A stretch of DNA of 64,000 nucleotides from Acetobacteraceae bacterium (GCA_965198915.1 CBDAQC010000002.1:1053284-1117283); one strand, 5' to 3'; shown: positions 6,727 through 59,983, counted from the stretch's first letter. Notes: a model not told the origin generated them from the sequence alone. Translations and numbers: made by a program.

Positions 6727-6844
6727 GGCCTTCTTTTTTGAAAAAAAGGAGCAAAAAACTTCTGTCTGTCCGGTGCGCGCGTTGCAGCCATCCGCGACAG
6801 CGCATCCAAAAGCTTTTTGCTTCTTTTTCTCGAAAAAGAAGGCC
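6727..6844. repeat. Family-1 REPIN-like palindromic doublet
   Basis: Left arm GGCCTTCTTTTTTGAAAAAAAGGAGCAAAAAACTT; inverted right arm AAAAGCTTTTTGCTTCTTTTTCTCGAAAAAGAAGGCC. Confidence 0.85.
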
Positions 6845-6857
6845 TTGCTTTCGTCCC

Positions 6858-7598
6858 TCACTCCAAAGGTCCCGCCACCAGAATAGGCGCAAACGGTTCA
6901 TCCTGCCGCAACCGCAGCCCGCCCCCGCGCGCCATCTCCAGCGAGGCGAGCAGCGTGCTGGCGATCGCCGCGCGGCGCTGCTGGCCGGACAGCGCGGCCG
7001 GGAGGAACACCTCCAGCGTGGTCCAGGGCGGTAGCGAGCCGAGCGTCGCCGACAGGCGGTGCAGCGCGTCCTGCACCGTCCAGAAACTGAGCTGCTTCGG
7101 CTGGTAGCTGACCTGTGCCGCCTTGCGCCGAAGCGCCTCCACATAGGCCCGCAGCAGCACCGGCAGGTCGGCGGCCAAGCGGGAGCGGTCCGTGGCGGTC
7201 AGGTCCTCCGCCGCACCGCGCCGGAACACGTCGATTCCCAGCACCGGGCGCGCGCCCAGCCAGGCAGCGGCCTGGCGCATGGCGGCCAGCTCGGCCAGCC
7301 GCGCCGCCAGCAGGTCGGCCGATTGCTCGCCTTCCGCAGCGTCAGGATCGTCCTGCGGCAGCAGCAGCCGCGATTTCAGCCAGGCCAGCCAGGCCGCCAT
7401 CACCAGCCAGTCCGCCGCCAGTTCCAGCCTCACTTGCGCCGCACCTTCGACGATGGCCAGGTACTGCTCCACCAGCGCCAGGATGGAGATGCGCGCGAGG
7501 TCCACCTTCTGCGCCCGCGCAAGATCCAGCAGCAGGTCCAGCGGGCCATCGAACCCGTCCAGCTGCAGCAGGAGTTTTTCGGCCGGCGTGTCAGACAT
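6858..7598 (-). CDS. scpA: Segregation and condensation protein A
   Basis: LQLDGFDGPLDLLLDLARAQKVDL...ISILALVEQYL, AADWLVMAAWLAWLKSRLLLP, ASLEMAR, QDEPFAPI. Confidence 0.93.
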   Translation of the reverse strand: MSDTPAEKLLLQLDGFDGPLDLLLDLARAQKVDLARISILALVEQYLAIVEGAAQVRLELAADWLVMAAWLAWLKSRLLLPQDDPDAAEGEQSADLLAARLAELAAMRQAAAWLGARPVLGIDVFRRGAAEDLTATDRSRLAADLPVLLRAYVEALRRKAAQVSYQPKQLSFWTVQDALHRLSATLGSLPPWTTLEVFLPAALSGQQRRAAIASTLLASLEMARGGGLRLRQDEPFAPILVAGPLE

Positions 7599-8295
7599 CG
7601 ATGTCCGGGTCCGGCGGCACGTGCGCCAGCCTCAACAAATGCTCGTACGCCCAGGTAACCGCGGGCACCAGCGTGTCGCCCAGCGGGTTGAAGGCGATGC
7701 CGTTGGCCCGCAGCAGCGCCGGGCCGGCGGTCAGGAAGATCAGCACAAAGGCGATCCCCAGCCGCTCCAGCCGCGCCCATTGCCGCGCCAACGCCCATGG
7801 CAACACGCCCACCGCGATGCGTCCGCCGTCCAGAGGCGGAATGGGCACCAGGTTGAACATGCCCAGTACCAGGTTGAGGATGATGAACGTATCGACGGCC
7901 TGTAGCACGGACGGGGACAGGCCGGACAGGCGCAGCGAAAACGCCGCCAGCAGCGCCAGGCTGAAATTCATCACCGGCCCGGCGATAGCCACCACCGCCA
8001 TCTGCTGGCGCGGGTAGCGGAACCGCATCGGATCGACCGGCACCGGCTTGGCCCAGCCGAACATGAACAGCACGTGGCCGACCGTGAGAAGCTGGCTGAC
8101 CAGCAGGAAGCCGGGTAGCAGGATGGTGCCCACGCGGTCCACATGCACCAGCGGGTTCAATGACAACCGGCCGGCGCGCCGGGCCGTGGTGTCGCCCATC
8201 GCCCAGGCGGCGTAGCCGTGCGCGAGCTCGTGCAGAATGATTGCCACCATGACCAGGGCGGCGGTGACGGCGGCTTGTTGGATCAGGGTTAGCAA
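7591..8295 (-). CDS. Site-2 protease family (M50) zinc metalloprotease
   Basis: HELAHG (HExxH), FGWAKPVP, AGPVMNF, FNLVPIPPLDGG (NxxPxxxxDG). The start is uncertain: TTG at 8295 chosen, immediately after a repeat. Confidence 0.88.
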   Translation of the reverse strand: MLTLIQQAAVTAALVMVAIILHELAHGYAAWAMGDTTARRAGRLSLNPLVHVDRVGTILLPGFLLVSQLLTVGHVLFMFGWAKPVPVDPMRFRYPRQQMAVVAIAGPVMNFSLALLAAFSLRLSGLSPSVLQAVDTFIILNLVLGMFNLVPIPPLDGGRIAVGVLPWALARQWARLERLGIAFVLIFLTAGPALLRANGIAFNPLGDTLVPAVTWAYEHLLRLAHVPPDPDIDV

Positions 8296-8304
8296 GGGAA
8301 CGAA

Positions 8305-8441
8305 GGCCTTCTTTTTTGAAAAAAAAAGCAAAAAACTTTTGCTCCCTCGTCGGTACACGGATCAGTCCAATCTGTGAAACGACCGGCTGGTACAGCGTAA
8401 GGGACAAAAGTTTTTTGGTTCTTTTTTTCAAAAAAGAACCG
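8305..8441. repeat. Family-1 REPIN-like palindromic doublet
   Basis: GGCCTTCTTTTTTGAAAAAAAAAGCAAAAAACTTTTG ... CAAAAGTTTTTTGGTTCTTTTTTTCAAAAAAGAACC, between the nagZ stop and the site-2 protease start. Confidence 0.85.
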
Positions 8442-8454
8442 CTTGCTTCTTTCA

Positions 8455-9426
8455 TCAGGCCAGCAGCCCCGCCCGCTCATCCGCCAGCGCCGCCGCGTCC
8501 AGCCCCCCTGGCCCCACCGCGGCCCGCGCCGCCGCCAGCCGCGCCAGGCACGCAGACGAAGCTTCCGGCACCGCCTCCAGCACGCCGCGTGAATCGGCCA
8601 GCACGCCGGAGCAGTGCAGCGCCACGTCGCACCCCGCCGCCAGCGCGGCCGCAGCCCGCGTGCCTGGCGCGCCGGTCAGTGCTTCCATCGCCAAATCGTC
8701 CGTCACCAGCACGCCCGCAAAGCCGATGGCCTCCGGCGCGCGTATCACGCGGCTGATGATGGCGGCGGACTGGGTGGCCGGGTTGGTCATGTCCTGCTGC
8801 ATGTAGCGGATATGGGCCGTCATCAGCCAGGGCAGCGTACGCAGGCGGCGGAACGGCAGCAGGTCGGTCTGGGACACGCCGTCCAGCACCGGCAGCTCCT
8901 TGTGGCTGTCGGCTCTGGCGCGGCCGTGGCCGGGCGCGTGCTTGCCCACCGGCTGCACGCCGGCCGCCAGCAGGCCCGCGGCATACGCGCCGGCAAGCTC
9001 GGCCACCACCTCCGGATCGTGCGAAAAGGCGCGGTCGCCGATCACGTCGTGCCCGTCCGGCGCCGCCACGTCCAGCACGGGGGCCGCCACCACGTCCAGC
9101 CCGGCTTGCGCGCAGTCCAGCCCGATCAGCGCCCCGGTCAGCCACGCCGCCCGCGCGCTGCGCAGCACTCGGACGGGCGGATGCGCGCGCCAGTGCGGCG
9201 GCCGCAGGCGCGCCACACGACCCCCCTCCTGATCCACCATCAGCACGCCTTCCGCGGGCAGCGCCCGCCGCAGCTCGGCCGTCAGCGCGGCAAGCTGCGC
9301 CGGGTCGGCCACGTTGCGGGCGAACAGGATGACGCCCAGCGGCTGCAGGTCGCGCAGCAGCGCCGCCTCGTCCGGCGAGAGCCGGAGGCCGCCAATGCCG
9401 ATGATCGCCGGACGCATCGCGGCCAC
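8455..9426 (-). CDS. nagZ: Beta-N-acetylhexosaminidase (GH3)
   Basis: GVILFARN, VDQEGGRVARL, KHAPGHG (GH3 KHxPGHG), MTAH, VTDDLAM. Confidence 0.93.
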   Translation of the reverse strand: MAAMRPAIIGIGGLRLSPDEAALLRDLQPLGVILFARNVADPAQLAALTAELRRALPAEGVLMVDQEGGRVARLRPPHWRAHPPVRVLRSARAAWLTGALIGLDCAQAGLDVVAAPVLDVAAPDGHDVIGDRAFSHDPEVVAELAGAYAAGLLAAGVQPVGKHAPGHGRARADSHKELPVLDGVSQTDLLPFRRLRTLPWLMTAHIRYMQQDMTNPATQSAAIISRVIRAPEAIGFAGVLVTDDLAMEALTGAPGTRAAAALAAGCDVALHCSGVLADSRGVLEAVPEASSACLARLAAARAAVGPGGLDAAALADERAGLLA

Positions 9427-9594
9427 GCCCTTCTAGATTGGGGTTGGGCGCAAGGCAGCACGTGCCCTGGCCAGGCACTTCTGGCGGAGTGTTACACGCC
9501 CTCTGCCAGCCGCTTTCACCTGGGCCGTCCCGCCAGCCGCGCGCCTGGGCTCAGACGGCTGTTCCCCGAGCGCCGCCGGAGCCGGCACGGCGGC

Positions 9595-10323
9595 TCAGAA
9601 CGCGGCGATGGAGCAATCCCCGCCTTTCGCCCGCACCTTGCCGCAGAACGCCGTCGCCGCCGCTATGTTGGCGAACCCGCCGGTGCGCAGGCGATACACC
9701 ACCCGGCCCGCAACGGTGGCACGCTCCACCTCGGGCGTATGACCGTCGAACAGTCCGGGAATCTTCTCCGCCAGCTTGCCCCAATCCTGCTCGGCGGCCT
9801 GCTGGCTTTCGAACGCCGCAAGCTGCACGGCTGTGCCGGGCGGCTGGTCGGCGGCCGGCATGGCGGCCTGCACGGAGGCATGTTGCACGGGGGCCGCGGG
9901 CGCCACGGCAGGCGCCGGCGCGGCTACGGCGACAGGCGCGGGCGCGACGGGCGCAGCCAAGGCCTGCTCCACCGGCTTGGGCGCCGAGCGTATCTTGGCG
10001 CGCAGCGCGTGCAGCGCCGGTTTCTCCGGCTCGGGCGCCAGGCGCTCCGCACCGCCGCTCACCTCATCGGCGCCCGCCACCTTCATGCCACCCGGGTCCA
10101 GCGGCTTGATACGCACCGGCCCGCTCTGCGCCAGTATCACCGGCACGCCGTGATGGGCGTGGTGGGACATGCTGAACACGCCGATCACCAGGGCCAGCAC
10201 GCCACCGAACCCGGCCGCCGCGATCGCCATGCGGCGCATGTCCGGATCCAACCCGCTGGCGGGTGCCGCGGGCCGGTAGGACGGGCGGCCAAAATTCTGG
10301 GTGATCTGCGGCACGTCTGACAT
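9595..10323 (-). CDS. SPOR domain-containing cell division/peptidoglycan-binding protein
   Basis: Single TM, Pro/Ala linker, C-terminal VQLAAFESQQAAEQDW...YRLRTGGF...FCGKVRAKGGDC. Sits between argS and nagZ as is usual. ATG at 10323. Confidence 0.88.
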   Translation of the reverse strand: MSDVPQITQNFGRPSYRPAAPASGLDPDMRRMAIAAAGFGGVLALVIGVFSMSHHAHHGVPVILAQSGPVRIKPLDPGGMKVAGADEVSGGAERLAPEPEKPALHALRAKIRSAPKPVEQALAAPVAPAPVAVAAPAPAVAPAAPVQHASVQAAMPAADQPPGTAVQLAAFESQQAAEQDWGKLAEKIPGLFDGHTPEVERATVAGRVVYRLRTGGFANIAAATAFCGKVRAKGGDCSIAAF

Positions 10324-10333
10324 CGGCAATTCC

Positions 10334-12127
10334 CTAACCGTCCCGCAACTCCTCGACGGGAACAACACCAAGCACGGCAAGACCGGACCTGATCACTACA
10401 GCAACCGAGGCCACCAAAGCCAGTCTCGCGAGCGTTTCCGCCGGCTGATCCTCCCGCAGAAACCGCAGCGTGGCCTCGGCGCGCCCCTGCTGCCACAATG
10501 TATTAAAGTCAGCCGCCAAGTCATAGAGAAAAAACGCTATTCGGTGCGGTTCATGCGCCAGGGCCGCGCCTTCCACCGTGCGCGGCCATTGCGCCAGGCG
10601 ACGCATCATCGCCAGTTCCGCCGGCGCTTCCAGACACGCCAGATCCACATGCGCCAGCGCTGCCGGCGTGATCGCCTCGGCACCGAACATCGGCCCGGCC
10701 TTGCGCAGCACGGAACGGCAGCGCGCATGCACGTACTGCACGTAATAGACCGGGTTCTCGCGCGTCTCTGCCACCGCCAAGTCCAGGTCGAACTCCATCT
10801 GCGCGTCCGGCTTGCGCGTCAGCATGGTGAAGCGCACCACGTCGCGCCCCACCTCGTCGATCAGGTCGCGCAGGGTCACGAAGCTGCCTGCGCGCTTGCT
10901 CATCTTCACGGCCACGCCGCCGCGCACCACGTGCACGATCTGGCACAGCAGGACGTCCAGCGCGTCTGCGCCCTCGGCCAGCGCGCGCACCGCCGCCTTC
11001 ATGCGGCTGACATAGCCGCCATGGTCCGCCCCCCACACGTCGATCATCAGCTTTGCGCCGCGCTGCGCCTTGTCGGCGTGGTTGGCGATGTCATTGGCAA
11101 AATACGTGTTGGTGCCGTCGGATTTCTTCAGCGGCCGGTCCACGTCGTCACCGAACTGGGTGGCGCGGAACAGCGTCTGCGGACGCGGCTCCCAGTCGTC
11201 CGGCGTCTTGCCCTTGGGCGGCTCCAGCACGCCCTCGTAGATCAGGCCGCGTTCCGCCAGCGTCGCGATCGCGCGCTCCGCCGCACCGCTGGCCAGCAGC
11301 GCGCGCTCGGAGGTGAACACGTCATGCACCACGCCCAGGGCCGCCAAATCCTCGCGTATGGCGGCCATCATCATGCTGATCGCCGTGTCGCGTACCGTGT
11401 CCAGCCACACTTCCGGCTCGGCCGGGGTCGCGTCCGGCCCGGCCAGCGCCGCGCCATGCGCCGCGGCCAGCGCCTCGCCCACCGGCACCAGGTAGTCGCC
11501 GCGGTATTGCAGGCCGCCAGGAACGGCGGCCGCATACGCCTCCTCGGTCAGCGTGGTGCCGAGCGCCTGCAGATAGCGCCAGTAGGCCGCCCAGGCGAGG
11601 GCCACCACCTGCGCGCCGGCGTCATTGACGTAGTATTCCTTTGTCACCGCAAACCCGGCCTTGGCCAGCAGGTTCGCGAGCGCATCGCCCACCACCGCAC
11701 CCCGGCAATGGCCAATATGCAGCGGCCCTGTCGGATTGGCGGAGACATATTCCACGTTGACCGCCACGCCCTGCCCGGCAGCGCTGTCGCCATATGCCTC
11801 GCCGGCCGCCAGGATCACCGGCAGCTGCGCCCGGAAGCTAGGCGCGCTCAGCCGCAGGTTGATGAAGCCCGGCCCGGCCGGTGCGGCCTCCGCCACGTCC
11901 GGATTGGCCGCGAGGTCGGCTGCCAGCACCGCCGCCAGCTCGGCCGGCTTGCGGCCGGCAGACTTCGCGCACACCATCGCCGCGTTGGTCGCCATGTCGC
12001 CATGTGCCGCCTCGCGCGTCGGTGTCACTTCCACGCGCGCTGACACCTCGGCGGGCAGCGCCGGCACCGCGCGCTGCAGCGCGGCCAGCACGTGGGCCCG
12101 CATGTCGGCATACAGGTTCTGGCTCAA
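10334..12127 (-). CDS. argS: Arginine--tRNA ligase
   Basis: GPGFINL, VEYVSANPTGPLHIGH (HIGH), GADHGGY, KMSKR, YVQYVHAR. TTG start after AGGA. Confidence 0.97.
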   Translation of the reverse strand: MSQNLYADMRAHVLAALQRAVPALPAEVSARVEVTPTREAAHGDMATNAAMVCAKSAGRKPAELAAVLAADLAANPDVAEAAPAGPGFINLRLSAPSFRAQLPVILAAGEAYGDSAAGQGVAVNVEYVSANPTGPLHIGHCRGAVVGDALANLLAKAGFAVTKEYYVNDAGAQVVALAWAAYWRYLQALGTTLTEEAYAAAVPGGLQYRGDYLVPVGEALAAAHGAALAGPDATPAEPEVWLDTVRDTAISMMMAAIREDLAALGVVHDVFTSERALLASGAAERAIATLAERGLIYEGVLEPPKGKTPDDWEPRPQTLFRATQFGDDVDRPLKKSDGTNTYFANDIANHADKAQRGAKLMIDVWGADHGGYVSRMKAAVRALAEGADALDVLLCQIVHVVRGGVAVKMSKRAGSFVTLRDLIDEVGRDVVRFTMLTRKPDAQMEFDLDLAVAETRENPVYYVQYVHARCRSVLRKAGPMFGAEAITPAALAHVDLACLEAPAELAMMRRLAQWPRTVEGAALAHEPHRIAFFLYDLAADFNTLWQQGRAEATLRFLREDQPAETLARLALVASVAVVIRSGLAVLGVVPVEELRDG

Positions 12128-12305
12128 AATCTGGTCCTAGGAGGGTGGCGAACCGGCTTCTAGCCCAGCCGCACCCGGCGGGTAACCACGTAAAGGCAGG
12201 CCAGCAGCCCGGCCGCCGCCCTGGTAATTCCGCGGCACCCCGGTATCACCTCCACCGCCTGCGCGACTCTGGCTGCGCGCCGGCCCAAACAACAGGAGAT
12301 GTCCC

Positions 12306-12680
12306 GTGTTCTCGCACATCATGATCGGCACCAACGACCTGGACCGCGCGAAAGCGTTCTACGACAAGCTGCTCGGCACGGTGGGCGTCCCGCCCGCCAA
12401 CATCGACGGCAACCGGATGTTCTACATGACGAAGACGGGCATCCTGTCGATCACCAAGCCGATCAACGGCGAGCCCGCGACGAACGCCAACGGCATGACG
12501 ATCGGCTTCGCTACCGACTCGCCCGAACAGACGCGCGCCTGGCACGAAGCCGGTTTGGCCGCCGGCGGCACCGATTGCGAGGACCCGCCCGGCGTGCGCG
12601 AAGGCGGCCTCGGCAAGCTGTATCTGGCCTATCTCCGCGATCCGGACGGGCACAAGCTCTGCGCGCTGCATCGCATGTAA
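12306..12680 (+). CDS. VOC/glyoxalase family protein
   Basis: MFSHIMIGTNDLDRAKAFYD...ANGMTIGF...WHEAGLAAGG...YLAYLRDPDGHKLCA. AGGAG RBS before the GTG. Confidence 0.9.
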   Translation: MFSHIMIGTNDLDRAKAFYDKLLGTVGVPPANIDGNRMFYMTKTGILSITKPINGEPATNANGMTIGFATDSPEQTRAWHEAGLAAGGTDCEDPPGVREGGLGKLYLAYLRDPDGHKLCALHRM

Positions 12681-12704
12681 GGGCGCGCAGCAGGCACACC
12701 GCGG

Positions 12705-12723
12705 ACCCGCCAAGCTGGCGGGT
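12705..12723 (+). terminator. GC hairpin downstream of the VOC gene (possible terminator stem)
   Basis: ACCCGCCA-AGC-TGGCGGGT perfect 8-bp stem; the U-tract is weak. Confidence 0.35.
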
Positions 12724-12902
12724 TCACCGCCTGGACGGGCCCGGTGGGCCGCTGGCCGCTTTTCTGATGCCGAGGGGCGGAAACCCCTTCTGTCACCGAC
12801 TGTGGGTCTGCCCGGAAGTCGCGGGTGCCCTGGCGCCGAACCCCATTCCGTAGAATTGCTGGTGACAGACACTCAACCCCGCACGCCACTCCGGACGCCA
12901 GA

Positions 12903-14036
12903 ATGATCCTGCCCGAACCCTTCCACGCGTTCAGCATCAGCCGGCTGGCGCACAAGCTGAAATCCGAAGGCCGGGCCGTGCTGCACATGGAATTCGGCCA
13001 GCCTTCCACCGGGGCGCCGAAAGCCGCCATCGCGGTGGCCCACCAGGTGCTGGACAGCGAGGCGCTGGGATATTGGGAAAGCCCGGCGCTGAAAGCGCGC
13101 ATAGCCCGCCTGTATGCCGAACGCTACGGCATCGAGGTCACCGCCGGCCAGGTGCTGCTGACCTGCGGGGCGTCGCCGGCGCTGGTGCTGGCGCTGGCAT
13201 CCAACTTCCGGCCCGGCGACCGCATCGCCCTCGCGCGGCCCGGCTACGTGGCCTACCGCAACACGTTGCGGGCGCTGCACATGCAGGCCCACGAGGTGCC
13301 CTGCGGGCCGGAGATGCGCTACCAGCTATCCGCCAGGCTGCTGGCCGGGATGGACCCGCCGCCCGCCGGCATCATCATGGCCAGTCCTGCCAACCCGACC
13401 GGCACGATCATCGAGCCGGGTGAGATGGCCGCGCTGGCCGCCATCTGCCGCGAGCGCGGCACCAGGATTATCTCGGACGAAATCTACCATGGGCTGAGCT
13501 ACGGTGAACCTGCGCGCTCGATGCTGGAGTTCGCCCCTGACGCCACGGTGATCAGCAGCTTTTCGAAATACTACAGCATGGCCGGCTGGCGCCTGGGCTG
13601 GCTGATCGTGCCCGCCGGCCGCTTCGACCTGACCTGGGCGTATGCCGGCAACATGTTCCTGACCCCGCCCAGCCTCAGCCAGCACGCTGCCCTCGCCGCA
13701 ATGGACAGCCACGCCGAGCTGGACGGACATCTTGCAACCTACCGCGAAAACCGCAGGCTGCTGCTGGAAGCGCTGCCCGCGTCGGGGCTGACCGCGATCG
13801 CCCCGCCCGATGGCGCCTTCTACATCTATGCAGATGTCGGGCACCTGACCCAGGATAGCCTGGCCTTCTGCACGCGGCTGCTGAACGACACCGGAGTGGC
13901 CATCGCGCCGGGCATCGACTTCGATCCGGTCGAAGGACGGCATTTCATTCGCATCAGTTTCGCGGTTTCCACGGCGGAAGTGCGCGAGGCGATCGCGCGG
14001 CTGGTGCCTTGGCTTGCTGGCGCGGCCGGGCGGTAA
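12903..14036 (+). CDS. Class I/II PLP-dependent aminotransferase (aspartate aminotransferase-like)
   Basis: SPANPTG, ISDEIYH, SFSKYYSMAGWRLGW (PLP lysine), PDGAFY, IAPGIDF. Confidence 0.9.
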   Translation: MILPEPFHAFSISRLAHKLKSEGRAVLHMEFGQPSTGAPKAAIAVAHQVLDSEALGYWESPALKARIARLYAERYGIEVTAGQVLLTCGASPALVLALASNFRPGDRIALARPGYVAYRNTLRALHMQAHEVPCGPEMRYQLSARLLAGMDPPPAGIIMASPANPTGTIIEPGEMAALAAICRERGTRIISDEIYHGLSYGEPARSMLEFAPDATVISSFSKYYSMAGWRLGWLIVPAGRFDLTWAYAGNMFLTPPSLSQHAALAAMDSHAELDGHLATYRENRRLLLEALPASGLTAIAPPDGAFYIYADVGHLTQDSLAFCTRLLNDTGVAIAPGIDFDPVEGRHFIRISFAVSTAEVREAIARLVPWLAGAAGR

Positions 14037-14047
14037 GGCTGAAGGAA

Positions 14048-14097
14048 GGCCTTCTTTTTCGAGAAAAAGAAGCAAGCTTTTGGTCCGCTGTCGCGGC
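14048..14097. repeat. Family-1 repeat, single left arm
   Basis: GGCCTTCTTTTTCGAGAAAAAGAAGCAAGCTTTTGGTCCGCTGTCGCG directly after the aminotransferase stop; no right arm found. Confidence 0.75.
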
Positions 14098-14136
14098 TTG
14101 GTGACACGTACGCCTGAGGCGCTGCCTGCGTGCTTA

Positions 14137-14244
14137 GTGTCTGTTGAAAACCCGACCAAGTGATTCGGCTGGCCGTCATTTTCGACCATCGGAGCACAGG
14201 AAATCGCCGTCAGATGGCCGCCGGGGCGAGTTTCAAACGGGCAC
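14137..14244. mobile_element. 108-bp MITE with IS5-family-like terminal inverted repeats
   Basis: Left end GTGTCTGTTGAAAAC (14137-14151). Right end GTTTCAAACGGGCAC (14230-14244), whose reverse complement is GTGCCCGTTTGAAAC. Flanked by direct TTA (14134-14136 and 14245-14247). No coding capacity. Confidence 0.6.
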
Positions 14245-15379: not shown

Positions 15380-15509
15380 TTCTGCTTAGGCTGTCTTCGG
15401 TATCTGTTTGTAAGCCTTCTCCAGCGGCGGAGCTTCAGGCGCCTGTGCACCTGGTCCGAAGAACGCGATCCGCCTCGTTGCTCTGAAATGCAGCCGGGTG
15501 TGACAGCCG

Positions 15510-16163: not shown

Positions 16164-16237
16164 TGCGTGTCCAGGAAGAAACGGTTGCGCATTCGGCTGC
16201 CTGGCGAACAATCGGCCGCCGCCATCGTTGCCGCCGT

Positions 16238-50778: not shown

Positions 50779-52515
50779 ATGAAGCGCGCAGCCCTTCTCG
50801 CCAGCGTTTTCCTGTGCACGGCCAACGCACACGCCGCGAACCTTCCCGCCGTCGTCAGCCGCGGCATCACCGATCTCGGCCGCGCCGCACCGGATACGCA
50901 GATACATCTTGCAATCACGCTCGCCTACCGCGACCAAGCCGGGCTCGACGCTTTCGTGCAGGCCGTGGGCACGCCAGGCTCTCCGCAATACCGGCAGTAT
51001 TTGACCGCGGAACAATTCAACGCGCGCTTCGCACCGTCGCCGGAAGACTACGCCGGGGTGGTGGCGGCCCTTCAGCGCGCCGGCCTGCAGATCGTGCAGA
51101 CCTATGAGAACCGCACAGTCATCGACGTTGCCGGCAGCGCGCAGGCCGTGGACGCCTATTTCGCCACCGAAATCCATAGCGTGGCACAGGCCGGCCATGG
51201 CACGCGCTACGCGAACCTGACCCCGGCCACCATGCCGGCCGAGCTTGCCGGCACCGTACGCACCATACTGGGCCTGGACAACATCGTCCGGCTGCATCCG
51301 CTGAACAGGCGCGTGGCCAGGGTGCCGCAGGGCAAGCCGGATGCCACCGCCGCCGCCCAGCCGATCGAGCGCACCACCGGCGGCAGTTTTGCCGGCATCT
51401 ACCCGGGCGGCATCGCGGCGGCCTACAAATTCCCCTCGCTGTCCGGCACCACAGGCACCGGCCACGGCATCGGCATCGTCATCGATTCCGACATCGCGAA
51501 CGCGGACCTGTCCACCTTCTGGACGGCGGCCGGCGTGAAGCGCACTGGCACGTTCACCCGCGTCCTCGTCAACGGCACCAATCCGGGCGTCAACGCCGAC
51601 GTGGGCGAGACGGCTATCGATACAGAGACGACCTCCGGCCTCAATCCGGGCTCCAACATCACGCTCTACCTGGTCAGCTCGCTGGACGACACGCCGATCG
51701 AGGACGCCTACAACCAGGCGGTTTCCGCCCATGTGGTGGACGTGGTCAGTTCCAGCTTCGGCGGCTGTGAGCCGGACGACACACCGTTTGCCACGGCTAC
51801 CAACATGATCGCCGAACAGGGTGCCGCCAAAGGCATCACGTTCACCGCTTCCTCCGGAGACGCCGGTGGCGATTGCGAGGACGAGACGGCCGCGGGCAAA
51901 GTCTACTACGAGCCCGACATCGTCAGCACGCCTTCGGCCGATCCGTATTTCGTGGCGGTCGGCGGCACCACGCTGAAGATCAACGCGAGCACCGGCGCCC
52001 GCACGTCGGAGACCGCCTGGAGCCCCGGCGGTGCCAATGGCGGCGGTGGTGGCGGCGTCTCCAGCTTCTGGGCGCTGCCCAGCTACCAGACAGGTGTCAC
52101 CGGCATTGCCGTGGTGCCGACGATCACCGCCAAGCCGCCCGACAGCCAGCCCAAAAGCGGCTTCAAGGGCCGCAACGTGCCGGACATCTCCATGGACGCC
52201 AGCAACGCCACAGGCTCCTACGTTGCGGTGTACGACACGCCCGATGGCGGCTGGACGGGCTACGGCGGCACGTCGGTCGCAAACCCGATCTTCGCCGCCC
52301 TGGTGGCACAGCAGAACGAGAAGACCGGCACCGCCGCCGGTTTTCTCAACACCGCGCTCTACGCCACCTACACGGCGAACGGCACCAAGCCGGCCGGCGT
52401 GTACGGGACGGATTTCTACGACGTGAAGACCGGCAGCATAGGTGCGGGCTGGTCGGCGAAGACGGGCTTCGACCAGGCGACGGGAATCGGCACGATCTTG
52501 GACGGCGCGTTTTAG
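50779..52515 (+). CDS. Secreted S53 (sedolisin/kumamolisin) peptidase with pro-domain
   Basis: Signal peptide, pro-kumamolisin-like region (YLTAEQFNARFAP), catalytic E..D (GETAIDTE), oxyanion ASSGDAG, GRNVPDIS, GGTS nucleophile, FYDVKTG...DQATGIGT. Confidence 0.9.
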   Translation: MKRAALLASVFLCTANAHAANLPAVVSRGITDLGRAAPDTQIHLAITLAYRDQAGLDAFVQAVGTPGSPQYRQYLTAEQFNARFAPSPEDYAGVVAALQRAGLQIVQTYENRTVIDVAGSAQAVDAYFATEIHSVAQAGHGTRYANLTPATMPAELAGTVRTILGLDNIVRLHPLNRRVARVPQGKPDATAAAQPIERTTGGSFAGIYPGGIAAAYKFPSLSGTTGTGHGIGIVIDSDIANADLSTFWTAAGVKRTGTFTRVLVNGTNPGVNADVGETAIDTETTSGLNPGSNITLYLVSSLDDTPIEDAYNQAVSAHVVDVVSSSFGGCEPDDTPFATATNMIAEQGAAKGITFTASSGDAGGDCEDETAAGKVYYEPDIVSTPSADPYFVAVGGTTLKINASTGARTSETAWSPGGANGGGGGGVSSFWALPSYQTGVTGIAVVPTITAKPPDSQPKSGFKGRNVPDISMDASNATGSYVAVYDTPDGGWTGYGGTSVANPIFAALVAQQNEKTGTAAGFLNTALYATYTANGTKPAGVYGTDFYDVKTGSIGAGWSAKTGFDQATGIGTILDGAF

Positions 52516-52530
52516 AAAGTAAGTAAGCCA

Positions 52531-52669
52531 GGCCTTCTTTTTTGAAAAAAAGAAGCAAAAAACTTTTGTCTCTCCGCATCTGCACCAGCCGGGTGCTCCT
52601 GGAGATGCCGGGACGCTGCGGCGTCGGGGAACAAAAGTTTTTTGCTTCTTTTTTTCAAAAAAGAAGGCC
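52531..52669. repeat. Family-1 REPIN-like palindromic doublet (well conserved)
   Basis: GGCCTTCTTTTTTGAAAAAAAGAAGCAAAAAACTTTTG ... CAAAAGTTTTTTGCTTCTTTTTTTCAAAAAAGAAGGCC: near-perfect inverted arms. Confidence 0.9.
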
Positions 52670-52678
52670 TTGCTTCCT

Positions 52679-54232
52679 TCACTCCATCGAAACCCGCATC
52701 TCCGGCCCGTCCAGAAAAGCCGCCGCATTGCGCCGCATCGCCGCCACCTTGCCCGGATCCATCTTGGCGAGCGTGCGCAACGGCATCGCCACGCGCATGT
52801 TGCCCGCCAGCAGCTTCTCGTGCCGCGCGAAGAAATCCCAGTACAGGTAATTGAACGGGCAGGCATTGGCGCCCACCGCATCCTTCACGTCGTACAGGCA
52901 GCCTTTGCAGTAATCGCTCATCCGGTTGATGTAGGCGCCTGACGCCGCGTAGGGCTTGGAGCCGATGATGCCGCCATCGGCGAACAGCGCCATGCCCCGC
53001 ACGTTCGGCATCTCCACCCATTGATACGCGTCCGCATAGACGATCAGATACCACTCATCCACGTCGTCAGGATGCAGCCCGGCCAGCAGCGCGAAATTGC
53101 CGGTGATCATCAGGCGCTGGATGTGATGCGCGTAGGCGTGCGTCAGCGTGTCGGTAATGGCGTGGTGCAGGCAGTTCATCCGCGTCTTGCCGGTCCAGTA
53201 GAACCACGGCATGCGGCGCGTCGCCTGCAGCATGTTCTTGCCCGCGTATTCGGGCATGTTGGCCCAGTAGATGCCGCGCACGAACTCCCGCCACCCGAGT
53301 ATCTGCCGGATGAAGCCTTCCACCGCGTTCAGCTTCGCGTGCCCCGCGCGATACGCGGCCTCCGCCGCCTCGCAGATCTCGCGCGGCTGCAGCAGGCCGA
53401 GATTCAGGGAGGTGGAGACCAGCGCGTGAAACAGCACCGGCTCGCCGGCTTTCATCGCGTCCTGGAACGTGCCGAAGCTCGGCAGACGGTTGGCGATGAA
53501 GTCGGCCAGCGCCTCGCGCGCCTGCGCACCGGTGACGGGAAGCGCGAAATCGGCCGCACTACCGGCGTGGCTGGGAAATGCGTGCTCCACCAGTTCGATC
53601 ACCTCGCGTGTGATCGCGTCGGGCGGAAAGCGCGGCACCGGCGGGTTGGCCACCGTTTTCGGCAGGCTCGCGCGGTTCTCCACGTCGTAATTCCAGGCGC
53701 CACCCTCCGGCGCCTCGCCGTCCATTAGGAAGCCGTGCCGCCGGCGCATCTCACGGTAGAAGAACTCCATGCGCAGGCCGCGCCGGCCGCGTGCCCAGAA
53801 AATGAAATCCTGTATGCGGGCGAAGAAGCGCGTGTCGTCGCGTACGTCCACTTCCACGCCGGCCACTTCCTGCCAGTGCCGGAAATCCTCCGCCAACCGC
53901 CACTCACCAGGCTCGGTCACCACCACGCGCGCGCTGCCGTGCTTCGCCAGCGCCCGCAGCATCTCGCCGCGCAGGCTCTGCGTGTTGGCCGGATCGTCCA
54001 GCGTCACATAGTCCACCTGCACGCCGCGCGCCCGCAGGGCCTGGGCAAAATGCCGCATGCCGGACAGCACGAGCACGATCTTCTTCGCGTGGTGGCGCAC
54101 ATAGGTGCACTCGGCCTGCACTTCTGCCATCAGCACCACGTCGCGTGCCGGATCGAGGTCGCCGAGACTGGAAATGCCCGGGCTGAGCTGGTCGCCCAGG
54201 ATCACCCGCAACGTGCCACCAGCTTCGCTCAT
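52679..54232 (-). CDS. Fe-S bacterial cryptochrome/(6-4) photolyase, PhrB/CryB-like
   Basis: ILGDQL, YVRHHAKKI, FGTFQDAM, RQILGWREF, YAHHIQRLM, WVEMPNV, KPYAASGAYINRMSDYC. Four Fe-S Cys positions: MNC, YCKGC, ACPF. ATG at 54232. Confidence 0.93.
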   Translation of the reverse strand: MSEAGGTLRVILGDQLSPGISSLGDLDPARDVVLMAEVQAECTYVRHHAKKIVLVLSGMRHFAQALRARGVQVDYVTLDDPANTQSLRGEMLRALAKHGSARVVVTEPGEWRLAEDFRHWQEVAGVEVDVRDDTRFFARIQDFIFWARGRRGLRMEFFYREMRRRHGFLMDGEAPEGGAWNYDVENRASLPKTVANPPVPRFPPDAITREVIELVEHAFPSHAGSAADFALPVTGAQAREALADFIANRLPSFGTFQDAMKAGEPVLFHALVSTSLNLGLLQPREICEAAEAAYRAGHAKLNAVEGFIRQILGWREFVRGIYWANMPEYAGKNMLQATRRMPWFYWTGKTRMNCLHHAITDTLTHAYAHHIQRLMITGNFALLAGLHPDDVDEWYLIVYADAYQWVEMPNVRGMALFADGGIIGSKPYAASGAYINRMSDYCKGCLYDVKDAVGANACPFNYLYWDFFARHEKLLAGNMRVAMPLRTLAKMDPGKVAAMRRNAAAFLDGPEMRVSME

Positions 54233-54310
54233 GTTGCACTCCAAGCTTCGGGCGGCACATGGGGCGTCCAACCGGGTTCGCACGGGTCTTGCGGAGTGTT
54301 GACGAAGCAA

Positions 54311-54478
54311 GGCCGCCTTTTTTTAAAAAAGGGGCTGGGTTTTTGCCCGTTCACTGCTGCCGCGCCTTGGCTGTCCTGCGGCTGACGCTGCTGGGCAGAC
54401 GGAAATCAGCGAGTCGTCCCTACTCGCCGAGCCGCCGCGTGAAAAAGTTTTTGCTTCTTTACGCAAAAGAACGCCTTC
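54311..54478. repeat. Family-1 doublet, degenerate
   Basis: GGCCGCCTTTTTTTAAAAAAGGGG ... AAAAAGTTTTTGCTTCTTTACGCAAAAGAACGCC, between the divergent phrB-like and sixA genes. Confidence 0.7.
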
Positions 54479-54507
54479 CTTGCCGCGTCCGTGGTGTTCT
54501 CTCCGCA

Positions 54508-55050
54508 ATGCGTCAGCTCCTCCTTCTCCGCCATGCCAAGTCGTCCTGGGACGATGCCGCCCAGTCGGACCACGCTCGTCCGCTGAACCCGCGCGGCCGC
54601 AGTGCCGCCGCGGCGATGCGGGACGTCTTCCGCAACCTGAGCCTGGTGCCCGACGTGGTTCTGGTCTCCTCGGCACGGCGCACCCGGCAAACGCTGGACG
54701 CTTTGGCACCCTGGGACGAGACGCCGATCATCGAACCGATGGACGGCCTGTATCTCGCCTCGCCTGCCCACATCCTCGCGATCGTCTCCGGTGTGGCGGA
54801 AACCGTGCGCAGCCTGATGGTGGTGGGCCACAATCCCGGCCTGCACGAACTTGCGATGATACTGGCCGGCCCGCATGCTATGTCATCGCACGGTCACATG
54901 GCCCGCCAACTCGCCGAGGGCTTTCCAGCCGGCGCACTGGCGGAGTTCACCGTGGCAAACAGCTGGCACGCACTCGATCCGCAATCCGGCTCTGCCGAAG
55001 GCGCCGGACGCCTGGTCCGTTTCGTGCGGCCGCGAGACCTGTCGGAGTAG
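54508..55050 (+). CDS. sixA: SixA-like histidine phosphatase
   Basis: MRQLLLLRHAKSSW (RHA motif), DHARPLNPRG, SSARRTRQT, VGHNPGL. Confidence 0.88.
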   Translation: MRQLLLLRHAKSSWDDAAQSDHARPLNPRGRSAAAAMRDVFRNLSLVPDVVLVSSARRTRQTLDALAPWDETPIIEPMDGLYLASPAHILAIVSGVAETVRSLMVVGHNPGLHELAMILAGPHAMSSHGHMARQLAEGFPAGALAEFTVANSWHALDPQSGSAEGAGRLVRFVRPRDLSE

Positions 55051-55057
55051 TGTCGCC

Positions 55058-56620
55058 GTGAACGCGCTTCCGCCCGAGGCCCAGGACCAAAGGGAGGCCG
55101 CGCAAACCGCATCCGGCTTCGAGGCCGCGCCCGCCGTGCCGGACGTGACGCTCACCTTCGAGCTGGACCCGCAGGACGCGCCCCGTCTGTTGCGCCTGCC
55201 CGCGCTGCAGGCCAGGCGCATGGGCGCTATACGTAGCGTGCCGGTGAACCACATCTGGCACGACACAGCAGAGGCTTTCCTGGCCGACCAGGGTCTTGCG
55301 CTGTGCCAAACGACGGGAAAAGCGGGCACATGGCGTCTTGAGCGCCTCTCGCCCGGGGACGCCCTGGCATGGCCGCCCGCAACCTGTCCGCCGGTTCTGG
55401 CCGAAGCCGACAGCCTGGAAGGCCTGCAGGACGTGCCGGCAAACGGACTCGTTGCGGCCGCGGCGTTCACCGGAAAGTGCCGCAGCGTGATTCTGCACCT
55501 GGATGGCGGCCCCGGACGGATCGAAATAGTGGAAGGCGCCATACGCGGCGTGGCGGAGGACCAGCCCGCCTGCCGCCTGCTGGTGACCGGCGCGCCAGCC
55601 GATGCCGCCGCCCTGGCTGCTGCAATGGCCGCTACGATACGCCTGTGTGTGCCGCGCCAGAGCCTGGCCGCCTCTGCCCTGGCGTTTGCCCGCGGCTGGA
55701 CACCGCCTCCCCGGCAGACAGGCGCGCCCCGCCTGACGCCAGGCCTGAGCGCCTCGGACGCGCTCGCCTGCATTACCGCCCACCTGGCCGAGGTGATCCT
55801 GCACTGGTCGGACCTCGTGCCGCAGGCCGCGGCACCCGAGCCGGTGCACCAGATGCGCGTAGCCGTCCGCCGCCTGCGCTCTGCCCTCTCCGTCTTCCGC
55901 CGCGCCGCCATGCACAATCAGGGCGGAGCAGGCTGGCTGCTGGAACTATCCGCCGCGCTGCGCGACCTCGCCGCCCGCCTGGGTGGCGCGCGCGACTGGG
56001 ATGTGTTCATCGGCGAGACGGGCGTTGATATACAGGCGGCGTTCCCGGCGGACCGGCGCATCACTCTCCTGCTCGCCGCCGCCAGCCGAAAGCGGGCCGC
56101 TTCCTACGCCGAGCTCGCCACCTACCTGGCCAGCCAGCAATGGGCGCTGCTCTCGCTGGAGCTTGCCTTGTTGCCGACCACGCGGCCGTGGGACAGGACC
56201 GGGGACACAGACGTGCTGGCCGCCGGCGCCCATCTTTACGCCGCGCGCGCACTGGACCGTCGCCTGAAACGGCTGTTGACGCCCGGCGCCGACCTGTCAG
56301 GCCTGCCGGCTGCCGAGCTGCACGAGACGCGCAAGCAGGCCAAGCGCCTGCGCTATGCCACCGAGTTCTTCGCCCCGCTGTTCCCCGGCAAGGCGACACG
56401 CAAATACATCGCCAGATTATCGGACCTGCAGGAAGTTCTGGGCGCGGTGAACGATACCGCCGTGGCCGCCCACCTGACGGACCAGCTGGCGGGTGGAACG
56501 GACCGTGCCTTCGCAGCCGGCGTGGTGCAGGGTTTTGGTGCGGCACGCGGGCGGCGGGCGGCGGCCAAAGCGCAGGAGGCCTGGCGCCGGTTTACCCGCG
56601 CTTCGGTATTCTGGGACTAG
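55058..56620 (+). CDS. CYTH-like plus CHAD domain protein
   Basis: C-terminal CHAD (EPVHQMRVAVRRLRSAL, ARDWDV, LHETRKQAKRLRYATEFF, LQEVLGAVND). The N-terminal CYTH-like region has a degenerate ExExK. Confidence 0.85.
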   Translation: MNALPPEAQDQREAAQTASGFEAAPAVPDVTLTFELDPQDAPRLLRLPALQARRMGAIRSVPVNHIWHDTAEAFLADQGLALCQTTGKAGTWRLERLSPGDALAWPPATCPPVLAEADSLEGLQDVPANGLVAAAAFTGKCRSVILHLDGGPGRIEIVEGAIRGVAEDQPACRLLVTGAPADAAALAAAMAATIRLCVPRQSLAASALAFARGWTPPPRQTGAPRLTPGLSASDALACITAHLAEVILHWSDLVPQAAAPEPVHQMRVAVRRLRSALSVFRRAAMHNQGGAGWLLELSAALRDLAARLGGARDWDVFIGETGVDIQAAFPADRRITLLLAAASRKRAASYAELATYLASQQWALLSLELALLPTTRPWDRTGDTDVLAAGAHLYAARALDRRLKRLLTPGADLSGLPAAELHETRKQAKRLRYATEFFAPLFPGKATRKYIARLSDLQEVLGAVNDTAVAAHLTDQLAGGTDRAFAAGVVQGFGAARGRRAAAKAQEAWRRFTRASVFWD

Positions 56621-56628
56621 GCAAGGAA

Positions 56629-56760
56629 GGCCTTCTTTTTCGAGAAAAAAAGCAAAAAGCTTTTGCTCCGCTATCGCCGGGCATTGAAGCGCGCGCGCAA
56701 ACAACGCGCAGCCGACGGAGACATAAGTTTTCTGGTACTTTTTTTTTAAAAAAGAAGCGC
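56629..56760. repeat. Family-1 REPIN-like palindromic doublet
   Basis: GGCCTTCTTTTTCGAGAAAAAAAGCAAAAAGCTTTTGCTCCGCT ... AAGTTTTCTGGTACTTTTTTTTTAAAAAAGAAGC. Confidence 0.8.
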
Positions 56761-56954
56761 TTTCTCTGCTGCCTCATGGACCAGGGCGAAATACCCGGTC
56801 CAACGCAAGGTGCATCCAGGCCCGAGCGGGTGCTCAGCCTTTGCTGCGGGTGCGAAGGTTGCCATCCTCTGAATACCACCGTTATGTTCCGCGCGGCAGC
56901 CTCGCCGTCCCGGCGGGCCATGACCGCCGCCTTGCCACACAGGATCGCACCATC

Positions 56955-58260: not shown

Positions 58261-58788
58261 TTGCGCGCCTGGCGGCCCGGCCTGCCCTTCCTGCTTCTGG
58301 CGTCCGTCCTGGCAGGGCAGGCCCGCGCGCAGGATGCGTCCGGCGGTCTCTGCTCGGCAGACGAGGTCAAGCTGTTCGCCTGCGTGCTGAAAACCCGTCA
58401 GCAGGTCGGCTTCTGCCTGGGCAAGTCCGACCTCAAGATGCGGCTCGTGGTCCTGTCCGGCGAGACGCAAGCCTCTTCCCCGGTCCGCAACCTGCGCGAG
58501 GCGCCGATCGGCAGCAACGCGCATGGCGACATCATCACCTTACGCGGCAGCACGAAAGACGGCCCGGTCGCCCTCTATGTGGACTTCCTGCCCGACGACC
58601 TTGTGCCCCCGGTGCTGGTCATGGAATCCGGCAAGCAGGAGATCAAGGAGCCCTGCGCCTCGGCATCGTTCGAGTCGGAGAGCACGGAGGTCTCTGTCGG
58701 TGGTGTCCGGCGCGTCGCCAGGCTTCCCGGCCTGGTGGAGATCGGCATCGCCAAGCCGCTCACGCCCGCGCCGGAGTGGCCGGACTGA
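58261..58788 (+). CDS. Hypothetical secreted Cys-containing protein
   Basis: Signal peptide ending ARA, LC...E...FAC...C pattern. TTG start assumed. Confidence 0.6.
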   Translation: MRAWRPGLPFLLLASVLAGQARAQDASGGLCSADEVKLFACVLKTRQQVGFCLGKSDLKMRLVVLSGETQASSPVRNLREAPIGSNAHGDIITLRGSTKDGPVALYVDFLPDDLVPPVLVMESGKQEIKEPCASASFESESTEVSVGGVRRVARLPGLVEIGIAKPLTPAPEWPD

Positions 58789-58828
58789 GGCGAGACGCTG
58801 AGGGCCATTTGCCAGCGCCATCCTTGGG

Positions 58829-59053
58829 TCAGCACTCGCACCCGCGCGTGGCGCCGGTCGAGGAGCGGGTGATGTGATGGTCGATCCACTCGCTCACCAG
58901 CGCACGGGCCTCGCTCAGCCCCGCCTCCGGATGGTGTATGCGGTATAGCGTCGTGCAGCTCTGGAACGCCGCCATGTCGTCGGTTCCGGCCCGGCGCAGC
59001 TCGCGATAGGCGGTCACCACCGCGCGTTCGCATCTCCGTCCGATCTCGGCCAA
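58829..59053 (-). CDS. Small hypothetical helical protein (74 aa)
   Basis: GGAGG RBS 6 nt before the TTG; CERAVVTAYRELR...LYRIHHPE...LVSEWIDH, ends GCEC. Confidence 0.65.
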   Translation of the reverse strand: MAEIGRRCERAVVTAYRELRRAGTDDMAAFQSCTTLYRIHHPEAGLSEARALVSEWIDHHITRSSTGATRGCEC

Positions 59054-59196
59054 CACCTGCCTCCAGTTGCGAATCACTCTTATCTGGTAGGAACAATACG
59101 CCCGTTCCGCCACCCCTCGCAACTGTCGGCTTGGGCTTGGGTTGCCCGCCGATTGGCGGCAGGGCAGAACGGACCCTGATTTCGAGGTGGGCGCTG

Positions 59197-59898
59197 ATGG
59201 CGGCAGGTGTGGCTACGGATTGGGACAGGGATGCGGCGCTGACCACGGCGCGCATCCTGCTGGAGATCGGCGCGCTCAACTTCCGCCCGGATGAGCCCTA
59301 CACCCTGACCTCCGGCTGGAAGTCGCCCGTCTATATCGATTGCCGCAAGATCATTTATTTTCCGCACGCCCGGAAAAAGATCTGCCAACTGGGCGTGGAG
59401 AAGCTGAACCGCCACATAGGCTACGAACAGATCGAGGTGGTGGCAGGCGGCGAGACGGCCGGCATCCCATTCGCCGCCTGGATGGCGGATTTGATGCACA
59501 CGCCCATGGCCTATGTGCGCAAGCAGCCGAAAGGTTTCGGCAAGAACGCGCTCATTGAAGGCGACGTGCCGGACGGGCGCCGCACGCTGCTGGTCGAGGA
59601 CCTGACCACGGACGGACGATCGAAGATCAAGTTCACCCAATCCCTGCGCGACGCCGGCGCCCTGGTGAACCACGCTTTCGTGGTGTTCTATTACGGCGTG
59701 TTCCCCGGCAGCCTGGAAAAACTGGCGCAGATGGACATCGCGCTGCACCATCTGTGCACCTGGTGGGACGTGCTGGAAGCCTGCCGCGACCGGCCGTATT
59801 TCCCGGAACACCATCTGGCCGAAGTGCGGCGGTTTTTGGAGAACCCGGTAGGCTGGTCGAAAGCGCGGGGAGCGGACGTGGAGGCCGCCCAGCAGTAG
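59197..59898 (+). CDS. pyrE: Orotate phosphoribosyltransferase
   Basis: LTSGWKSPVYIDCRK, GGETAGIPFAA, YVRKQPKGFG, LLVEDLTTDG (PRPP loop). Confidence 0.92.
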   Translation: MAAGVATDWDRDAALTTARILLEIGALNFRPDEPYTLTSGWKSPVYIDCRKIIYFPHARKKICQLGVEKLNRHIGYEQIEVVAGGETAGIPFAAWMADLMHTPMAYVRKQPKGFGKNALIEGDVPDGRRTLLVEDLTTDGRSKIKFTQSLRDAGALVNHAFVVFYYGVFPGSLEKLAQMDIALHHLCTWWDVLEACRDRPYFPEHHLAEVRRFLENPVGWSKARGADVEAAQQ

Positions 59899-59940
59899 AG
59901 TACGTAGTTGGCCTGCCCGCTCAGACATCTGTGCAGGCAC

Positions 59941-59983
59941 GGAGCAGGCTTTCTGCCTCTTGCACAACGAAAGCCTTGCTTCC
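59941..59983. repeat. Family-1 repeat, degenerate right arm
   Basis: GGAGCAGGCTTTCTGCCTCTTGCACAACGAAAGCCTTGCTTCC. Confidence 0.4.

Follow-up and report, generated by a model that had tools for sequence, protein, structure and literature searches.

Several families of non-autonomous, palindromic repeats are known from the intergenic DNA of bacteria. The REP, REPIN and BIME elements of Escherichia coli and Pseudomonas, which are associated with RAYT transposases, consist of short hairpin units that occur as inverted doublets and as singlets in hundreds of copies; they are extragenic, lie mostly at 3' ends or between the genes of operons, lack target duplications, and have been proposed to protect the 3' ends of mRNAs, to act in partial termination and to bind gyrase or IHF. 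REPs end on one side in a tetranucleotide tag, GTAG or CGTC, and CGTC REPs are missing in Acetobacteraceae (Di Nocera 2013, PMC3733652). The Correia elements of Neisseria (CREE/NEMIS) are 100-190-bp foldback sequences with long inverted ends, found by genes in hundreds of copies and co-transcribed as long hairpins, with no known transposase and with size subclasses that stem from internal differences, and the ERIC/IRU elements of enterobacteria and the RIME and Sm-repeats of rhizobia are old, lineage-restricted, imperfect palindromes, 100-150 bp long, from transcribed intergenic DNA, again with no known mobilising enzyme. Here we analysed a 64,000-nucleotide stretch of an Acetobacteraceae genome (GCA_965198915.1 CBDAQC010000002.1:1053284-1117283; the window), in which a reading of the sequence alone had noticed a family of inverted doublets with A/T-tract arms placed next to stop and start codons. 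Apart from the RAYT association and the tetranucleotide tag, the family resembles these elements in the features listed above, with no general signal of a target duplication and, for the Correia hairpins, as far as can be read from sequence; in our best reading it belongs broadly with the REP/REPIN/BIME, Correia and ERIC elements. Our favoured interpretation, held with modest confidence, is that these are ancient foldback repeats confined to Acetobacteraceae, whose arms are under selection and which probably serve as a symmetric 3'-end or intercistronic hairpin.

The size of the family was determined with a profile hidden Markov model (HMM) trained on 12 arms from the window and searched with nhmmer against the whole genome (4.44 Mb, 67% G+C, six contigs). 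The 1272 arms recovered are spread over all contigs and are arranged as 444 inverted (convergent, '+-') doublets and 384 single arms, with the other possible arrangements found 1, 1 and 1 times; the palindromic, inversely paired arms described by the sequence-only reading are thus general, and the build of hairpin-bearing doublets and singlets is REPIN-like. Altogether there are about 830 loci, and doublets and single arms cover 90.8 kb, or 2.04% of the genome, a far higher copy number than that of ERIC/IRU or RIME/Sm-repeats. Doublet lengths range from 141 to 189 bp with clusters near 144, 166 and 188 bp. A doublet forms a single long palindrome, in which two arms of ~50 nt enclose a GC-rich hairpin core and act as terminal inverted repeats that are up to 96% complementary. 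From the outside inwards, the arm consists of (GNAA)2-3-GGCC, then TTCTTTTTTGAAAAAAAGAAG, then CAAAAAACTTTTG; its middle is a 10-bp A/T-tract hairpin, xTTCTTTTTT-GA-AAAAAAGAAy, which CAAAAAACTTTTG adjoins, and in the window copies the left arm reads AAGGAAGCAAGGCCTTCTTTTTTGAAAAAAAGAAGCAAAAAACTTTTGCTCCC, followed by the GC-rich centre and the reverse complement of the arm. Runs of at least six A or T are found inside elements in 87% of cases genome-wide. The centre had been taken for an unrelated GC-rich spacer; instead, we found three conserved GC-rich core classes, each itself palindromic, in 118, 131 and 111 copies with common arms. Real copies each fold into one long hairpin, at about −80 kcal/mol on average. 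The family differs from REP, REPIN and BIME in that its hairpins are made of A/T tracts and are not GC-rich, and in that its doublets enclose a 45-100-nt GC-rich hairpin core of three size classes. In a distant genus (genome G098, ~26 copies; L254-L273) the same arms surround another short hairpin core, ACTCTGGGCC...GGCCCAGAGT, and the arm is therefore the conserved module, whereas cores are specific to lineages.

An exact 26-mer scan over one genome per species returned matches almost only from Acetobacteraceae, among them Gluconacetobacter liquefaciens, G. tumulicola, Roseomonas sp. GC11, Acidiphilium sp. PA and Acidocella as well as many metagenome-assembled genomes from bogs, lichens and lakes. 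In an even sample of the family, a 29-mer from the arm was present in 43 of 151 genomes (41 of 143 genera) at 1-785 copies, with 0 for a control pattern, and in the window's own genus none of the 26 species genomes lacks the element. The same arm was found in 0 of 248 genomes of other alphaproteobacterial families, which makes it a sharp taxonomic marker and bears out its proposed lineage specificity. Family-wide conservation of the arm is a further difference from ERIC/IRU and RIME/Sm-repeats. In the G. liquefaciens copy a stop codon lies directly before the element and an ATG ~30 nt after it. No match was obtained by BLAST against a plasmid collection. Rfam gave 0 matches in the whole window at the gathering score, and at a relaxed E-value only sub-threshold matches to generic long-hairpin models (miRNA precursors), and full-text literature searches, with the sequence and with repeat terms combined with Acetobacteraceae names, did not find a description of the family. 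The family is absent from Rfam and from the searchable literature, and to that extent undescribed, as had been suspected.

The placement of the elements is tied to gene boundaries, and the adjacency to stop codons noticed in the window holds genome-wide. Relative to the projected element end, upstream stop codons have a median position of −3 nt, with 75% between −13 and +1, and, when measured from the TTCTTTT anchor, stops peak at 8, 12-14 and 16-17 nt, in phase with the terminal (GNAA) units. In a test that is independent of gene calling, the stop of a long open reading frame (ORF) was found within −16 to +14 of 528 of 888 element ends, compared with 88 of 888 random positions; copies from other genera gave 135 of 242 ends. 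Single arms adjoin a stop with their outer end in 105 cases and a start in 63, and with their inner end in only 12 and 10, respectively. Assigned to junction classes with a crude gene caller based on the G+C content of third codon positions, the doublets fall into 259 co-directional, 81 convergent and 47 divergent junctions, roughly in proportion to the numbers of these junctions. In 48 of the 81 convergent pairs both stops are within 10 nt of the element, which then constitutes the entire spacer. Downstream starts often lie 0-20 nt past the element, several of them without a Shine-Dalgarno sequence. Ends that fall within a few bases of stop and start codons separate the family from REP/REPIN/BIME, and such precision at gene boundaries separates it from ERIC/IRU and RIME/Sm-repeats.

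The outer ends themselves, made of (GNAA)2-3 repeats, bring stop codons in phase, as in GTAA-GTAA-GCCA-GGCC at window positions 52505-52530; three TAA-bearing units would close all three frames, yet N is T in only 5-21% of the units. Of the adjacent stops sampled, 23 of 37 are TAA or TAG. Two further regularities were looked for and rejected: the distance from the arm AAGG to the downstream start is broadly distributed without a sharp peak, which speaks against a fixed Shine-Dalgarno-like spacing, and neighbouring single arms have near-random orientations (38/30/23/22), which speaks against arms that bracket genes as cassettes. The integron attC site is a described sequence with a similar placement, as it begins at the stop of the preceding ORF and ends shortly before the next one, and it is likewise an imperfect palindrome with conserved ends and a centre of variable length that is thought to act as a folded single strand. 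Unlike attC sites, the elements occur on all six contigs, among housekeeping genes and at co-directional, convergent and divergent junctions, they form no co-oriented cassette array (intI itself was not searched), and they lack R/L core-site sequences.

Copies are also found inside clusters of ribosomal protein genes, at tuf/rpsJ (L274:14811-14921), rplO/secY (L275:4509-4642) and rpoA/rplQ (L275:8794-8903), on contig C6. All three have TA(A/G) on both sides, followed by an AGGA or AGGAG Shine-Dalgarno sequence, and at least 13 congeners have the rplO/secY copy, with one match running across it in each, down to 75% identity.

Comparison of orthologous junctions between species bears on how the elements came to lie there. 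The junction downstream of scpA is filled in the window, in three congeners (G164, G163 and G159) and in a paralogue on contig C4, and it is empty in seven congeners, in which the stop and start overlap or lie 1-4 nt apart. The junction holding the doublet at 8293-8452 is empty in about ten congeners, with an ATGA stop/start overlap. At 23 syntenic junctions examined against five congeners, some sites are filled and others empty or decayed, in a mosaic pattern, so that the predicted differences in presence and decay at orthologous loci are indeed seen. The remnants noted by the sequence-only reading at 18905, 21801 and 25141 are decayed orthologues of copies that are intact in sister species, with the A/T tracts lost first. 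At two places (window ~24050 and ~28300) one junction carries different core classes in different species, which points to repeated insertion or to conversion between copies through their shared arms. On the evidence of these orthologous sites, the copies entered gene junctions and are of mobile origin, and their exact position between a stop and the next start or stop follows from entry into sites that are empty and tight in related species.

Such tight junctions could be read in terms of translation. The hairpin, as RNA, would juxtapose the upstream stop and the downstream start so that ribosomes reinitiate across its base, which would make insertions between overlapping genes harmless. This would suit the overlap or near-contact of stop and start at empty sites, their retention at opposite stem bases of filled sites, and the several downstream genes that lack a Shine-Dalgarno sequence, but starts lie at widely varying distances from the element without a sharp peak, an AGGAG still precedes highly expressed genes that follow an element, the element is just as common between convergent genes, and neither stability nor G-U pairs show a sense-strand bias. 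We regard coupling of this kind as very unlikely.

By sequence divergence, most copies are old. The identity of a doublet to its best full-length partner has a median of 85% and reaches 95% or more in only 4 of 444 doublets, which does not fit the continued activity that had been proposed. A k-mer test gave no general signal of target-site duplication, and flanking 4-5-mers were not in excess; shared flanking 6-mers showed a slight excess without a fixed position (17 vs 8.3), and since the copies are old, a duplication may have eroded. Near-identical strains were not found for the scpA locus among metagenome loci, the best having 85% protein identity. The age of the copies also weighs on the possibility of a selfish and still active MITE (miniature inverted-repeat transposable element), moved in trans by some transposase, in which the arms would serve transposition and the abutment on stops would be a target preference, for example for the TA in TAA/TAG, with the first purine of the element rebuilding the stop. 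Presence/absence differences between species, the terminal inverted repeats, a patchy occurrence among genera with near-identical arms, TA(A/G) on both sides of the three ribosomal-cluster copies and the share of TAA and TAG among the sampled stops are what such an element would produce. We nevertheless think it unlikely, because, besides the age of the copies, the arms of orthologues are conserved in place while their cores drift, the k-mer test shows no general target duplication, there is no enrichment of T at 5'-facing ends, and no insertion sequence (IS) has the same ends, those of IS1595 and IS630 being unrelated. The TA duplication that is apparent in a few copies, and is not general, is also a difference from Correia elements, to which the family has no sequence relation; the host family is another one, and no IHF-like site is apparent here.

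The mobilising enzyme is not a RAYT. Searched for the Y1/RAYT domain PF01797, this genome and four congeners (G069, G154, G156 and G160) gave nothing, although the search detects the domain in 6 control genomes. PF01797 is present in 4 of 16 carriers of the element and in 0 of 12 non-carriers, and no copy is flanked by arms. Mobilisation of a REPIN population by a cognate RAYT, as suggested by the sequence-only reading, would agree with the doublet and singlet architecture and with the hairpin in each unit, but in view of the missing or unflanked PF01797 and of arm ends that read (GNAA)n-GGCC with neither the GTAG nor the CGTC tag, we consider it close to refuted. A cognate IS, also suggested, was not found either, as no IS has the same ends. 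The family therefore fails as a REPIN on the RAYT and the tag, and as a classic MITE on the partner IS and, so far, on target duplication, and mobility can be inferred only from the comparison between species because neither a target-site duplication nor a mobilising enzyme was found.

Candidates for an autonomous partner were sought between convergent single arms, and the 41 intervals contained unrelated host genes or small membrane proteins; no nuclease cassette was found in the intervals between distant convergent arms. The sole sequence common to the intervals is an IS1595-family IS inserted in two elements. This IS is ~870 bp long, its two copies are 99.8% identical (C6:235836-236767 and C6:407390-408254, ends GGGGCTGGCCTAGATAA), and both are inserted inside elements near the arm CTTTTG, so that IS1595 may prefer this repeat as a target. 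A single IS630-family element (C2:1542304-1543365, ends CTAGAGCGGTTTCAC) lies next to a truncated element; it was rejected as a partner, as its ends are unrelated and it adjoins an element and does not surround one. Very few IS copies are present genome-wide despite the roughly 830 repeat loci.

The arms differ from the rest of the element in how they are conserved. Within the genome, arm cores have a mean major-allele frequency of 0.89-0.92; the value is 0.61-0.69 for the central cores and 0.67-0.69 for the outermost 13 nt. Orthologues have an identity of 0.88 (median 0.92) in the arm cores, of 0.60 in the central cores and of 0.85 in flanking coding DNA, and in non-orthologous controls the arms reach 0.81 and the cores 0.52. 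As judged from these identities, the cores of orthologues are now little more alike than those of unrelated copies, while the arms have remained almost constant. A private arm variant, CTCGAAAAAG, is common to five orthologues, which argues for conservation in place and not only for homogenisation.

The arm hairpin itself shows compensated changes. Its closing pair is C..G in 672 arms of this genome and G..C in 174, and hardly ever mixed. In an alignment that includes 20 arms from a distant genus, 98.4% of the cells are paired and four pairs have double changes, with U-A, G-C, A-U and C-G all found at one position; the covariation score is 0.172, compared with 0.051 in shuffles, none of 500 of which reach it, and with at most 0.056 when slid. 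Three other signals were tried and rejected. Copy-specific compensation in the long stem is not supported, as real elements are no more stable than chimeras made of halves from different copies; RNA-specific selection is not supported, as sense and antisense are equal in fold energy and G-U pairs; and an orientation relative to transcription is not supported, as conservation does not differ between proximal and distal arms and heterotypic doublets occur in either orientation without preference. In sum, the sequences show that the arm hairpins are under constraint and that the element is strand-symmetric and positioned exactly at gene boundaries.

A strand-symmetric, constrained arm might also be a duplex site. 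The arms would then be DNA binding sites for a host protein (nucleoid-associated, gyrase, GapR-type, or a binder of hairpins or cruciforms) and would organise supercoiling or insulate transcription units, as has been discussed for BIME/REP with gyrase and IHF. Strong conservation of the whole 35-nt arm core, well beyond the T-tract, the strict symmetry of the element for strand and transcription direction, the phased A/T tracts in a genome of 67% G+C and the occupation of every kind of junction at roughly the rate set by its frequency would all be expected of such sites. On the other hand, the arm stem has compensatory changes, which speak for a folded single strand and not for a duplex motif, and no candidate protein was identified; we judge this explanation improbable.

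The reading that we favour is that the arms are kept for a strand-symmetric job at gene ends, most likely as a REP-like 3'-end or intercistronic hairpin. The consensus has terminator geometry on both strands, ...GCAAAAAA-CUUUUGCUCCC(GC core)GGGAGCAAAAG-UUUUUUGC..., and the transcript of either strand would present an A-tract, a stem CUUUUGCUCCC-(GC core)-GGGAGCAAAAG and a U-tract, which is the geometry of a bidirectional terminator. The hairpin would work in both directions as an intrinsic terminator or attenuator, probably a partial one, and it would block 3' exonucleases and so protect the upstream mRNA. Alternatively, the arms may be bound by a host protein that recognises the hairpin. As RNA, the arm GAAAAAAAGAAGCAAAAAAC and its U-rich complement would also give (AAN)n tracts and U-tracts, which correspond to the two kinds of sequence bound by Hfq.

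Several points weigh against this reading. Termination and stabilisation are inferred purely from the sequence. The copies at tuf/rpsJ, rplO/secY and rpoA/rplQ, and those that fill formerly overlapping stop/start junctions, indicate that the elements cannot be efficient or strong terminators, since they lie inside essential clusters and between once-overlapping gene pairs; the stem pairs next to the U-tract are A-U, and an A-U-rich stem in this position is atypical of strong terminators. Arm conservation extends far beyond the needs of a U-tract and therefore favours a specific binding partner. Some orthologous copies (25141 and 21801) have clearly decayed, and therefore not every copy is constrained. 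Gene conversion could lie partly behind the homogeneity of the arms, as the differing core classes at one site hint, the long stem has no copy-specific compensatory changes, and neither a target-site duplication nor a mobilising enzyme was found. A bolder and more tentative version of the favoured reading, which we regard as possible but not likely, is that the arms are a domesticated, family-wide cis-element, in which a conserved Acetobacteraceae factor would read the compensated A/T hairpin, and that this would be the main gene-boundary signal, a bidirectional attenuator or insulator and 3'-end stabiliser that is 'translation-transparent', with the stop at one foot of the stem and the start at the other. 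On this version the elements may have homed originally to stop codons, a TA plus purine rebuilding TAA or TAG.

Within the window, the 22-mer CTTCTTTTTCGAGAAAAAGAAG has 10 matches with up to 3 mismatches, compared with 0 in 100 shuffles, and a 31-mer arm core has 7, again with 0 in shuffles. The arm HMM gives 14 arms at E ≤ 0.01, which correspond to six intact doublets and the arms at 14041 and 54442, and weak remnants were recovered by a more permissive run. Of the about 16 copies counted by the sequence-only reading, six intact doublets, one solid single arm, two degenerate doublets and a set of weak remnants stand; the copy at 59966 is marginal, and at 34915 the permissive run found no credible arm (E 9.9). 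The window genes that flank elements include scpA and genes for an aminotransferase, an SPL-family protein, a fatty acid transporter, a peptidase, a DPRP, a CHAD-domain protein and citrate synthase. A sigma-70 scan of window positions 5000-20000 found no promoter-like site.

The intact doublet at 6715-6855 (141 bp; arms E 2.5e-15 and 7.4e-15) fills the gap between the stop of scpA, identified from Pfam (TGA, minus strand, 6858-6860), and the ATG of the next gene (6705-6707). The second, at 8293-8452 (160 bp), lies between two minus-strand genes and combines one type-1 with one type-2 arm. A third intact doublet, at 17300-17438, separates an SPL-family gene (stop 17281) from an ORF with its ATG at 17440, and there is no Shine-Dalgarno sequence between the doublet and this ATG; the starts that were said to follow directly on an element without such a sequence are thus seen for this ORF and for the gene after scpA. 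In G164 the same site holds a 139-nt spacer that is non-element or decayed, with the ATG conserved. The 17440-18900 ORF, which had been called an AAA ATPase, has no Pfam family at E ≤ 1e-5, and its ATG directly after the element is the one conserved in G164. The intact doublet at 26680-26841 lies between convergent genes, a short-chain fatty acid transporter (stop 26646) and a minus-strand gene (stop 26849). The best-preserved one, at 52519-52680, belongs to the 166-bp class, has arms that are 96% complementary and an RNA minimum free energy of −93 kcal/mol, and is the whole spacer of a convergent pair formed by a pro-kumamolisin-like peptidase gene (stop 52515) and a photolyase-related DPRP gene (stop 52679). 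The last, at 56618-56765, begins at the TAG of a CHAD-domain gene (54875-56620) and lies upstream of citrate synthase (56841).

The solid single arm is truncated (14041-14088, plus strand; E 6e-11) and lies 5 nt past the stop of the aminotransferase gene (12825-14036, Pfam). Of the degenerate doublets, the one at 18900-19086 (both arms E 7e-4) begins 1 nt past the TGA of the 17440-18900 ORF, and its core is split by ~110 nt of foreign sequence; its orthologues in G164 and G159 are intact. The interruption (window 18931-19061) is lower in GC and absent from these orthologues, and may be another small insertion. The other, at 54304-54483 (arms E 0.0027 and 1.4e-6), adjoins the start of the DPRP gene, and a very degenerate doublet at 50585-50710, after a stop at 50573, is a weak call (arms E 0.057 and 4.0). 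At 21798-21925 only the left arm of a decayed copy can be detected (21798-21829; E 0.005); the site has intact orthologues in G164, G163 and G159 and is empty, with 38 nt, in G156. A further decayed copy with eroded A/T tracts, at 25131-25290 (arm match 25131-25158; E 5e-4), has intact orthologues of the 188-bp class in G164, G163 and G159. Weak arm remnants are found at 733-761 (nhmmer E 0.004), listed at 730 by the sequence-only reading, where G163 and G159 have recognisable copies at the junction, and at 47565-47608 (plus strand; E 0.006). The marginal and insecure terminal remnant at 59966-59986 (minus strand; E 0.12) lies directly before the ORF 59908-61236.

Part of the window belongs to a duplicated segment. 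A syntenic segment of ~40 kb is present at C2:1028800-1065400 (window 1-12140) and at C4:39800-79650 with 79-89% identity, and the C4 duplicate includes orthologous copies of the elements at 6715 and 8293; a segmental duplication long ago, or uptake from a related species, could account for it. Synteny with the close congeners G156, G163 and G159 stops at ~12.7 kb (window ~12690), where the C4 paralogous segment also ends, and beyond this point the window maps to other contigs or places in these genomes.

The family is distinguished by its abundance, the family-wide conservation of its arms, its exact placement at gene boundaries and its missing mobiliser. If the favoured reading is correct, about one in eight gene junctions in this lineage would be built from one repeat, those of ribosomal-protein operons included, and this would concern many Acetobacteraceae, including cultured Gluconacetobacter, Acidiphilium and Roseomonas. 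Start codons directly after an element and 3' untranslated regions are easily mis-called in the annotation of such genomes. The element would also offer a natural, ready-made boundary module for expression engineering in acetic acid bacteria. It would represent a REPIN-like family that has a high copy number but no RAYT and that conserves its arms in place across species, and it would be a good system for asking how selfish hairpin repeats turn into host elements.

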